A stretch of 13,559 nucleotides of DNA, taken from Nitrospirota bacterium (GTDB taxonomy: Bacteria > Nitrospirota > Thermodesulfovibrionia > Thermodesulfovibrionales > Dissulfurispiraceae). Below, piece after piece: positions 1,133-5,512 of the stretch (the stretch's first letter is position 1; each line of letters opens with the position of its first letter). The DNA lies in contig JBFMCP010000056.1 in NCBI GenBank assembly GCA_040754455.1, positions 1-13,559 on the forward strand, given 5' to 3'. The position numbers and the translations under genes were made by a program. The notes under the pieces are model-generated. The model saw only the letters and a list, made by a program, of their open reading frames with translations, was not told the origin of the DNA and ran no database searches.

Positions 1133-1603
1133 TTACTTCCTGCAGGGGCTTTTCGGTAAGAGAGATTTTTTTTGCAGCGGCTTTTTGCAGACCGTCTTAT
1201 AAAGCACTTCACTCGCACCGTCCGGAGTTATATAATCCCAGCTCCCTGTACGCAGATCGTCTTCGATACGATAGTCGCTGTAGGTCTTCAGGACCTTAAG
1301 GATACGAAGCTTTTTCTTGGGGCACTTTACTTCAATGAGGGCAAGGACAACAGCGGGAAGTGCGGTAGTGTAGGCAGCGACAGGAATGGTTGTTTTTGTC
1401 CAGACCCTGATCGTGCCGTCGGGTTCCCGGACCATGCTCTCAGTATCATAGTAATTATTGATCGAGCCTCTCTCTAATATCGTCGAGCGTTGAGTAACCG
1501 CATACTTTTTATAAAGCTTCCACGTAGCCGCTTCCGCAGACGAGTAGCTGCAGAAAGCGAACAGAACAGGAAGAATAATTGAGACCAGCCGGTACAGGTG
1601 CAT
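1133..1603 (-). CDS. Secreted surface-adhesin protein E-like protein (paralog 1)
   Basis: AAGGAG RBS; signal peptide ending AEA; pattern W...YYD..S....DG.IRVW.K...EVKC..KKLR......W..I.P.G....LY..VC, which I recognise as typical of the family. Confidence 0.7.
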   Translation of the reverse strand: MHLYRLVSIILPVLFAFCSYSSAEAATWKLYKKYAVTQRSTILERGSINNYYDTESMVREPDGTIRVWTKTTIPVAAYTTALPAVVLALIEVKCPKKKLRILKVLKTYSDYRIEDDLRTGSWDYITPDGASEVLYKTVCKKPLQKKSLLPKSPCRK

Positions 1604-3299: not shown

Positions 3300-3316
3300 C
3301 TGGCACGCAATTTGAA
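3300..3316 (+). promoter_or_regulatory. Candidate sigma54 (-24/-12) promoter
   Basis: CTGGCACGCAATTTGAA against the consensus YTGGCACGRNNNTTGCW. The -24 box and spacing are exact, but the -12 is GA instead of GC. It lies 36 bp upstream of an ATG with a strong RBS. Confidence 0.55.
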
Positions 3317-3352
3317 ATGGTAAAAGTACCAAACAGCGAGGAGGTGACCGAA

Positions 3353-3541
3353 ATGAGCAAGTCTAAAACAAAAAAACTTGTCTCAATATTAATGGAATCA
3401 CCACTGTATCTGACACTGTCGGTCAAGCAGCGGCAAACATTGCTCGACCAATTGGCAGCACAGTATCCTCATCTCCAGGATACGAGAGAAGAGGAGCGGG
3501 AAGTCGGATACGAGTCGAGCTGGTCCGGGGCCATCCACTAG
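3353..3541 (+). CDS. Small hypothetical protein (62 aa)
   Basis: GAGGAGGTGA RBS at 3338-3347 selects ATG 3353 rather than 3317. The product reads MSKSKTKKLVSILMESPLYLTLSVKQRQTLLDQLAAQYP..., helical with an acidic C-terminal part. Confidence 0.7.
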   Translation: MSKSKTKKLVSILMESPLYLTLSVKQRQTLLDQLAAQYPHLQDTREEEREVGYESSWSGAIH

Positions 3542-3693
3542 TCATCAACGCTCGAGATCGCGACATATCTTTTTCATTGAGGAAGAGCATATGCACGGTC
3601 GCACACTTCATACCGACCGCACCACAACAGGCAGGTAGTTTACCACCTGAATAAGCAGTAAGACGGCTGTTTCGTCTTAAAAGGAGTTCAGCC

Positions 3694-3972
3694 ATGGTAC
3701 AGATCAAAAAATATTACATGATACTCATCGTTCTATCGATTCCGGTCACGTTTATCTGGGGATGGGTTTTGGGCGTCAATGACGGCGTCAATACCGGGTA
3801 CAATGTTGCCTACCAGGAAATGAACAATCTTCTGAAACAGGGTGTCGAAGGCGGACTTAACTTTACCATCAACGGTGTGAACGCACGGTTTGTTCCACGA
3901 CAGGATAAATCGATTGCCTACAAAGTCTCTGCCGATGTCGGCGGAAAGAAATCAAGAAATCATAGAATGTAA
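3694..3972 (+). CDS. Hypothetical single-pass membrane protein (92 aa)
   Basis: AAGGAG RBS at 3681-3686; N-terminal TM helix followed by a Gly-periodic stretch GxxxGxxxGxxxGY. Confidence 0.7.
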   Translation: MVQIKKYYMILIVLSIPVTFIWGWVLGVNDGVNTGYNVAYQEMNNLLKQGVEGGLNFTINGVNARFVPRQDKSIAYKVSADVGGKKSRNHRM

Positions 3973-4038
3973 CAGTACATCCAATTGACCGAAGATGCGC
4001 TCTACTGATGCATCGCTTCGTGAGTGATGAAGCACGGC

Positions 4039-4076
4039 AAAAAAAGAGCCGTGCGGTGAGCGGCTCGCACGGCCTC
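4039..4076 (-). terminator. Rho-independent terminator (minus strand)
   Basis: Minus strand: GAG-GCCGTGCG-loop10-CGCACGGC-TC followed by T7. Confidence 0.8.
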
Positions 4077-4096
4077 GGAGAAAAGAGTATGTCATT
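4039..4096 (-). ncRNA. Candidate ~58-nt small RNA with anti-RBS/anti-AUG seed
   Basis: Bounded by a near-consensus promoter (4130-4103) and the terminator above, with no credible protein-coding ORF. The 5' single-stranded part is AAUGACAUACUCUUUUCUCC. The start site is inferred from -10 spacing. Confidence 0.55.
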
Positions 4097-4102
4097 AGTT
4101 CA

Positions 4103-4130
4103 ATGATACCAGACGGAAATGTCCTGTCAA
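4103..4130 (-). promoter_or_regulatory. Sigma70 promoter
   Basis: Minus strand TTGACA (4130-4125)-N16-TATCAT (4108-4103), with an extended -10 TGn. Confidence 0.7.
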
Positions 4131-4204
4131 GTGTTTATGTGAGGGGTCCTATGCAGAGCAAAACGGTAAGGCACCAGGCGCGGGCGGCACGAGGTCGTCC
4201 GGCG

Positions 4205-4522
4205 CTATTGATCGCGGAGAGGGTACGGTTGTACCTCTGCTATAGAGAGTTTATAAATCTTTTCTTCGCCCGGCTTGCTGACGATGAGATGCTTCACGAC
4301 CCTGTAGCTTTTTTGATCGATGTGACTGCTGTCGCACACTTCCCTCACGTTGTATACGGTATCACGATAGAGCACCTTGCCGGTCCTGTGGACGCTCTCC
4401 ATGACCTCGTCGAGCATCCGTTGTCTCTTTGTAGTGCGCGTCTTTCTGATGAAAGCGACCGCGCCATACAGCACGAGCGCAATGGCCAATACATAGTGAG
4501 CGATCGACAAAAAATCTTTCAT
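4205..4522 (-). CDS. Hypothetical membrane-anchored protein (105 aa)
   Basis: N-terminal hydrophobic helix followed by a basic stretch; weak AAGG RBS; fills the gap divergently from the transglycosylase gene. Confidence 0.7.
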   Translation of the reverse strand: MKDFLSIAHYVLAIALVLYGAVAFIRKTRTTKRQRMLDEVMESVHRTGKVLYRDTVYNVREVCDSSHIDQKSYRVVKHLIVSKPGEEKIYKLSIAEVQPYPLRDQ

Positions 4523-4676
4523 GAAACCTTACCAAAGAGGCAGTTTATGACATTTTACCGCATAACCCGTGCCAATGCGCAAGTAAATAGTAACATCCTG
4601 AAATGCAACGGAACCCTGTTATTTCTCAAAAGAAAACACGGGAAGATATTTTTCTGAGGAAAAATTTTCCTTTTCT

Positions 4677-4684
4677 GCCGATAA
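4677..4684 (+). promoter_or_regulatory. Sigma28-type -10 box GCCGATAA upstream of the transglycosylase
   Basis: Exact GCCGATAA 21 bp upstream of ATG 4706. The -35 match is poor, only A/T-rich. Confidence 0.4.
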
Positions 4685-4705
4685 ATAGATAAGGAGGAGC
4701 CACGT

Positions 4706-5512
4706 ATGAAAGGACAGAGCGGTGGAGACACTCAAACCTTGAATATGCGTATCTCAGCGTGGTATCATTTATCAATGATTGCGATACTGATTTTTATGGT
4801 TTTTTTATTTGCCGGGACCGCGGCCGAAGCTGATATTTACCAATCGGTTGCAACCGATGGGTCACTCCATTTTACCAACACCCCTGTTGACAGGAGCGGC
4901 AAGATGGTGCTCAAGGAGGAGTCGCCTGCCAAGGAACAGCAGAATGCCGTCAAAGAGCAGCAAAAGGGGTATCGGCGCGCGGCCGCGTTTTACGATACAG
5001 GCGACTACCAGAGCATCATCGAGGAGAAGGCCCGCCAGCATAATATGGACCCTCAATTGATCAAGGCGGTGATAAAGACCGAATCGAACTGGAATGCCAA
5101 TGCCGTCTCGCCCAAAGGCGCCTGCGGCCTCATGCAGCTGATGCCGACGACCGCCTCGCTTCTGGGAGTTGCCGATATCTTCGATCCCGAAGAAAATATC
5201 GACGGGGGCACCAGGTACCTGAAGTACCTCCTCGGTAAATTCGACGGCAATGTCACCCTGGCCCTTGCCGCATATAATGCCGGGCCAAAGCGGGTGGAAA
5301 GAAAAGGCGGGATTCCCTCCATTCCCGAAACAGTGGCGTACGTCAAGAAGGTCTTGGGCTATTACAACGGAAATACGATGATCAATATAAATTCACAGGA
5401 AATACAGAGAGAGATCAAGAAGGAGTTCAACCGTATCAAGAAACTCATCATGGAGGACGGTACCGTACTCTTTACCAATTCTTATCTCGCCAATTCCTAT
5501 CTGAAAAAGTAA
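4706..5512 (+). CDS. Lytic transglycosylase (SLT domain) with N-terminal DUF4124-like domain
   Basis: AAGGAGGAG RBS; signal peptide ending AEA; DIYQSVATDGSLHFTNTP (DUF4124-like); SLT motifs IKTES (catalytic Glu), SPKGACGLMQLMP and ALAAYNAG, then ET..YV.KV. Confidence 0.92.
   Translation: MKGQSGGDTQTLNMRISAWYHLSMIAILIFMVFLFAGTAAEADIYQSVATDGSLHFTNTPVDRSGKMVLKEESPAKEQQNAVKEQQKGYRRAAAFYDTGDYQSIIEEKARQHNMDPQLIKAVIKTESNWNANAVSPKGACGLMQLMPTTASLLGVADIFDPEENIDGGTRYLKYLLGKFDGNVTLALAAYNAGPKRVERKGGIPSIPETVAYVKKVLGYYNGNTMININSQEIQREIKKEFNRIKKLIMEDGTVLFTNSYLANSYLKK

Follow-up and report, generated by a model that had tools for sequence, protein, structure and literature searches.

We conclude that the minus strand between positions 4130 and 4039 very probably carries a real transcription unit and that its predicted product is plausibly a base-pairing sRNA. 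These positions lie in the window, the stretch of 13,559 nucleotides that we analysed, which is the whole of one contig (G000:C56) in a 3.27-Mb assembly. The explanation that we favor, at a rough probability of 0.6, is that a small unit, lying in the 3′ region of a gene for a 105-aa protein, is transcribed independently and yields a trans-acting RNA. The parts of the unit and the genes around it are as follows.

4130..4125, minus strand: −35 hexamer TTGACA, from the promoter scan.
4111..4109 and 4108..4103, minus strand: TGn followed by TATCAT, the extended −10 element, from the promoter scan; the sister species (G001) has TGn followed by TACCAT.
4096, minus strand: putative transcription start, an A, the seventh base past the −10 element, placed by the usual distance from −10 to start.
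4094..4077, minus strand: CU-rich unpaired head of 18 nt, the putative seed, a mirror of GGAG-N8-AUG-UCA.
4074..4047, minus strand: terminator hairpin of 9 pairs (8 and one G-U) with a 10-nt loop, seen in the folds.
4074..4066, 4065..4056 and 4055..4047, minus strand: 5′ arm, loop and 3′ arm of the hairpin, followed by one C and then U7.
4045..4039, minus strand: U7 tail, read from the sequence; in the sister species, a U5 run within a U/C-rich tail.
4039..4096, minus strand: predicted RNA of ~57 nt, the sum of these parts.
4089-4106, plus strand: mini-ORF MSLVQ-stop, five codons before the stop, judged incidental.
4522-4205, minus strand: gene for the 105-aa membrane-anchored protein, upstream of the unit and co-oriented with it.
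3694-3972, plus strand: gene for a 92-aa membrane protein, the second gene of a two-gene cassette.
3317/3353-3541 and 3694-3972, plus strand: the convergent cassette of two small-protein genes, inverted relative to the sister species.

The initial annotation had described TTGACA-N16-TATCAT with a TGn extension on the minus strand, and the promoter scan recovered this site at 4130..4103, with 11 of 12 positions matched, a spacer of 16 and TG before the −10 element. When sites with at least 11 of 12 matches and a spacing of 16-18 were counted on both strands of the 3.27-Mb genome, we obtained 100, compared with 28, 29 and 22 in three block-shuffled genomes. With TGn in addition, 10 sites were left in 6.5 Mb (both strands), against 0, 3 and 1 in the shuffled controls, and the site at 4130..4103 is one of these 10. 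This promoter site is exceptional in the genome. We also screened promoter sites of at least 10/12, 596 in number, for a hairpin with a T run behind them, and 21 had such a terminator within 260 nt; in 8 of these units the terminator lay within 160 nt of the −10 element, and the unit at 4130..4039 is the shortest of the 8. A tRNA gene (Rfam 64 bits) and a TPP riboswitch (Rfam 70.5 bits) were also among the 8, each with the same promoter model directly in front, which indicates that a sigma-70-type model is valid in this genome.

Two orphan pairs of promoter and terminator were found elsewhere in the genome (G000:C19:33489-33598 and G000:C9:80289-80413, both on the minus strand; ~65 and 75 nt). 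Their promoters read TTGAAA-N18-TATAAT and TTGACA-N18-TATGGT with TGn, and neither unit has an Rfam match. Both may be regarded as further sRNA candidates in this genome.

The hairpin at 4074..4047 was absent from our terminator scan because that scan had a loop limit of 8, and the loop here has 10 nt. Folding of 4098..4036 gave −17.2 kcal/mol with the head mostly unpaired, and 4 of 200 shuffled sequences folded equally well. In the sister species, hairpin and tail fold with −17.1 kcal/mol (z = −5.6), and the head is unpaired in both species (centroid fold in G000, MFE fold in G001). A hairpin followed by T7 at about 26 nt past the −10 element had been noted before; hairpin and tail stand as described, and the distance is corrected to 28 nt. 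It had likewise been noted that the unpaired head mirrors GGAG-N8-AUG, and the plus-strand complement of the head (4077-4094) indeed reads GGAG-N8-ATG.

From these elements we infer the production of an RNA, its start position, its pairing, the help of Hfq and the identity of any target. A near-consensus extended −10 sigma-70 promoter would start the RNA at ~4096, and the hairpin with U7 would end it at ~4040, giving a primary transcript of ~57 nt. This transcript would consist of a single-stranded CU-rich 5′ head of 22 nt, the unpaired stretch from A4096 to 4075, and a terminator stem-loop that ends in a run of U. Hfq usually binds at a 3′ module of this kind, and an hfq gene is present in the genome (G000:C4:41020-41205, 108 bits). 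Most likely, the head would pair in trans with the region from the Shine-Dalgarno sequence (SD) to the start codon of one or more mRNAs and would block ribosome entry. A search for RNA sequencing runs with 3700-4700 returned none, which counts neither for nor against the RNA.

A BLAST search of 3600-4800 against 40 relatives returned a match only in the sister species, which is the one other species of the genus. One piece of the match covered a part of the 92-aa gene (72% identity), the other positions 4041-4113 of the window (80% identity). Within the unit, the −35 hexamer is identical at 6/6 positions, the −10 element at 5/6 with the TGn kept, the putative start A at 1/1, the head at 18/18 and the two stem arms at 8/9 and 7/9 with all nine pairs kept. 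The six bases past the −10 element are identical at 4/6 positions, the promoter spacer at 7/16 with its length of 16 kept, and the loop at 5/10. As a neutral yardstick we used the adjoining slt gene, in which 30 of 70 four-fold sites and 111 of 247 third codon positions are identical between the two species; the four-fold value places the spacer and the loop at the neutral level. As judged by this comparison, purifying selection acts on promoter, head and stem but not on spacer and loop. Conserved hexamers, a conserved head and conserved stem pairing, together with a drifted spacer and a drifted loop, are the partition expected of a minus-strand unit of promoter, seed and terminator.

Between the two species, the stem differs at two pairs, one GC/GU and one with a compensatory change from CG to UA; the other 7 pairs are invariant, and 18 of 18 cells are paired. 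The expectation set out beforehand, that relatives would keep the seed and the promoter along with a covarying stem, was borne out in the one relative that could be compared. With the unit present in just two genomes, the covariation itself counts for nothing statistically: in 252 of 500 shuffles the observed values were reached.

An Rfam scan had been proposed for the RNA, and a search of the whole window on both strands with 4227 families gave 0 matches at E ≤ 1. Among 68 genomes of the family, the 18-mer of the head occurs with at most 2 mismatches in 21 genomes, at 22 places, and the hairpin adjoins it only in G000 and G001. In public collections the exact 18-mer was found at 26 genome-contig loci and 52 metagenome-contig loci, most of which look like an ordinary ribosome-binding site (RBS) and start codon; the viral contigs searched gave 0 matches. 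Scored with a covariance model of the unit (R1), all 78 public loci reached 19.2-28.7 bits, compared with 80.6 bits for G000 and 87.6 bits for G001. When R1 was run against the 68 family genomes, the next best score was 34 bits, and nothing convincing was found. The 8 weaker family matches that we inspected are generic terminators or other sequence, with neither promoter nor head, and the one extra match in a 151-genome sample of the order (28.1 bits) is a generic terminator. No homologue of the unit was found outside the genus in the family, the order sample or the public contigs, and as far as these searches reach the unit appears to be restricted to the genus.

One recurring gene start in the public collections has the identical 18-mer for its RBS and start codon and is preceded by a conserved leader. 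It belongs to one contig group (metagenome loci L092, L095, L105, L121, L129, L130, L132, L134 and L142; genome locus L053, labelled Gammaproteobacteria) and is unrelated to the RNA unit.

The interval that holds the unit, 3973-4204, separates the 92-aa gene from the 105-aa gene, and past the 105-aa gene lie an SLT/DUF4124 transglycosylase gene (slt) and nadA. Neither the 92-aa nor the 105-aa protein has a Pfam or NCBIfam match. Homologues of the 105-aa protein occur in the sister species (44% identity) and in G080 (39%); 5 of the 68 family genomes match, two of them weakly, as do 2 of 401 genomes in a sample of the phylum, and viral contigs gave no match. The G080 homologue adjoins a convergent gene, with no RNA unit beside it. 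In the sister species, the 105-aa homologue, the RNA unit and the cassette's 83-aa ORF and 96-aa homologue follow one another on one strand, with 264 nt from the terminator to the 83-aa ORF. The G000 cassette has the opposite orientation and runs toward the unit (window 3317-3972, corresponding to 556-1236 of G001 locus L004), and one breakpoint lies just past the RNA's terminator. The first cassette genes of the two species share 34 of 61 residues (E = 2e-23). The RNA unit is intact and beside the 105-aa gene in both arrangements.

The 92-aa protein has a paralogue at G000:C2:61129-61212. The motif TGGCACG-N4-TTGA stands before the cassette in both species (window 3300-3315, plus strand; G001 L004 ~1245-1262, minus strand), and we take it to resemble a sigma-54 promoter. 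A 184-aa ORF at 4103-4657 on the plus strand, antisense to the conserved 105-aa gene, matches no family and is probably spurious.

One alternative explanation is that the hairpin does no more than end transcription of the 105-aa gene, as its intrinsic terminator, that there is no separate RNA, and that the 18-nt block is a cis element of the mRNA 3′ UTR, such as a protein- or RNA-binding site or a stability element. The 105-aa gene needs a terminator anyway, and no other was found from its stop codon at 4205 to the hairpin. Since none was found between that stop codon and the −35 element in G000, the 105-aa mRNA probably ends at the same hairpin, and the terminator sharing proposed by the initial annotation is plausible. 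The −35 element begins 74 nt past the stop codon in G000 and only 6 nt past that of the homologue in G001, and the block would be part of the mRNA 3′ end in both species. However, a terminator with a cis element leaves unexplained why the −35 hexamer, the TGn and the −10 element are conserved with an unchanged spacing of 16 nt over a spacer that agrees at only 7/16 positions, and why the site is among the 10 best promoter matches of the genome. We consider this explanation unlikely, if not strikingly so.

The 18-nt block can also be read on the plus strand, where selection might act on the RBS and start codon of a micro-ORF of 5-6 codons, with the minus-strand RNA as its cis-antisense controller in the manner of a type I toxin-antitoxin system or a uORF. 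The block reads GGAG-N8-ATG-TCA, a short ORF stands at it in both species, and the public 18-mers mostly front apparent real gene starts. The mini-ORF MSLVQ-stop was confirmed where the initial annotation had placed it, and its counterpart in the sister species reads MSVIKW-stop; however, both are too short for a membrane toxin, they differ in length (5 and 6 residues), and past Met-Ser all 3 common positions differ. What the two ORFs share is only the RBS, the ATG and the TCA, all of which lie inside the 18-nt block. The plus-strand upstream context differs between the species because of the cassette inversion, and downstream on the plus strand there is only the antisense of the 105-aa gene. 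The likeness to type I antitoxins that had been drawn for the RNA breaks down at this cis ORF, which has 5 or 6 codons and is not conserved. We regard selection for the plus-strand reading as very unlikely.

If the arrangement of the sister species is taken as the guide, the unit might be a 5′ leader whose attenuator terminator controls the downstream small-protein cassette, since unit and cassette are co-oriented there and 264 nt apart. In G000, however, the cassette is inverted and convergent and no co-oriented gene follows the unit, so that the co-oriented gene past the terminator by which riboswitches and attenuators are recognized is present only in G001. The inversion of the cassette beside an unchanged unit argues against a leader or attenuator. 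In both species the cassette has a separate motif just upstream of it that resembles a sigma-54 promoter, and the head, with 22 nt, is too short to act as a leader that senses a ligand. A leader function is highly improbable.

A chance promoter match beside a terminator, conserved only through the closeness of two genomes, would accord with the presence of the unit in only two genomes and with a loose-threshold promoter scan of the 1.3-kb region that gave 2 sites against 1.7 expected, but this reading is scarcely credible and already disfavored, because the genomes are far apart at neutral sites, spacer and loop have drifted, and with 30/70 four-fold identity the 18/18 plus 6/6 identical columns are very unlikely to have arisen by chance.

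For the trans-acting RNA that we favor, we searched for targets over all start regions, as the initial annotation had suggested. Among 13,855 candidate start regions, the real head reached a minimum of −27.6 kcal/mol and had 25 sites at or below −24, compared with minima of −24.7 to −28.6 and 1 to 26 such sites for 8 control sequences over the same start regions; this genome-wide prediction thus gave no excess over shuffled controls. GU-tolerant matches to the 18-mer with at most 2 mismatches numbered 25+16 in G000 against 26+25 for a reversed control, and 28+28 against 30+26 in G001. The best site genome-wide was a hairpin past dnaK (20 pairs including 4 G-U, −31.8 kcal/mol; ten controls −27.2 to −30.8). 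This terminator-like hairpin lies at G000:C1:61831-61887 on the minus strand, ~130 nt downstream of dnaK, with the complement of the head partly in its loop. It was rejected as a target because the dnaK-dnaJ spacer of the sister species lacks the site.

Other candidate targets were rejected as well. The slt leader had been put forward as a possible partner, but it pairs weakly, with −12.9 kcal/mol in G000 and −11.2 in G001, near the average of all candidate start regions (−12.2), and the pairing is not kept in G001. The start regions of the 105-aa gene, the 92-aa gene and the cassette gave −9.5 to −16.7 kcal/mol, and prs reached −25.8 kcal/mol in G000 but −15.4 in G001, where the site is not kept.

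The best target lead, and it is a lead only, came from close matches to the head itself. Apart from the unit, 4 sites in G000 match the head at 17/18 or better, and only one of these is a true gene start; two others were set aside as not being gene starts. The true gene start belongs to a gene for a 419-aa HdrA-like protein directly after aprA, the latter assigned by TIGR02061 (677 bits, above the cut-off), and by gene order we take the HdrA-like gene to be probably qmoA. Its start region matches the head at 17/18 positions (GU allowed) in both species, the site being identical in G001, and cofolding puts the head on this region with a ΔΔG of −17.2 kcal/mol in G000 and −22.0 kcal/mol in G001. 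The site ranks only 37th by duplex energy, and conservation between the two species extends over the entire start region in any case.

On the strength of this lead, the RNA might be a lineage-specific riboregulator of dissimilatory sulfur metabolism, whose head would clamp the qmoA mRNA from SD to start codon and so throttle electron delivery to APS reductase. The host would be an uncultured sulfate-reducing genus of Nitrospirota in which qmoA is the first gene after aprBA, and the RNA would be expressed in two forms, as a separate transcript and at the tail of the mRNA for a small membrane protein. The sulfur genes confirmed in G000 are aprA and the qmoA-like gene. We hold this specific role to be distinctly unlikely; if true, it would tie an sRNA to the core pathway of sulfate respiration. 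A search of the literature brought up no paper about sRNAs of the phylum and none about qmo regulation by an sRNA.

The 5′ UTR of the qmoA-like gene (G000:C2:138431-138592; L007 1351-1512) contains a long conserved AT-rich hairpin with 13-bp arms beginning TAGTTTATAATGT. It is also found in the sister species (G001:C44, L073) and lies past the terminator-like hairpin that follows aprA. This AT-rich hairpin may have a regulatory role at the junction of apr and qmo.

Overall, the unit makes a sound but ordinary sRNA prediction, with an architecture of known kind. To our knowledge, uncultured sulfate-reducing Nitrospirota have hardly been examined for regulatory RNAs, and a compact candidate of ~57 nt with partitioned conservation would be a good first case of riboregulation for that group. 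Its promoter is near enough to consensus for a trial in E. coli.

Among known systems, type I toxin-antitoxin antisense RNAs share with the candidate a short antisense RNA over the start region of a plus-strand ORF; unlike them, the candidate faces an ORF of 5-6 codons that is not hydrophobic, and the defining toxin is missing. With a length of 57 nt, the predicted RNA is shorter than most primary sRNAs and nearer in size to the processed 3′ UTR RNAs, of which CpxQ and ArcZ are examples. Classical intergenic Hfq-dependent sRNAs are reported to occlude ribosome-binding sites (PMC5861419), and the candidate resembles them in its CU-rich unpaired region complementary to SD and AUG, its U-tailed terminator and the genomic hfq. 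A further group of sRNAs is transcribed from a separate promoter located where a protein gene ends and shares that gene's terminator, namely Salmonella DapZ, E. coli MicL, V. cholerae MicX and Lactococcus ArgX (~66 nt), as described in a review (PMC9438474). The candidate differs from these four in having neither sequence nor Rfam kinship with them, a promoter past the stop codon rather than before it, one hairpin only, and a range of one genus of an uncultured lineage. It is like them in the placing of its promoter at or just past the end of an ORF, a shared Rho-independent terminator, a short (here predicted) transcript and a conserved single-stranded region.
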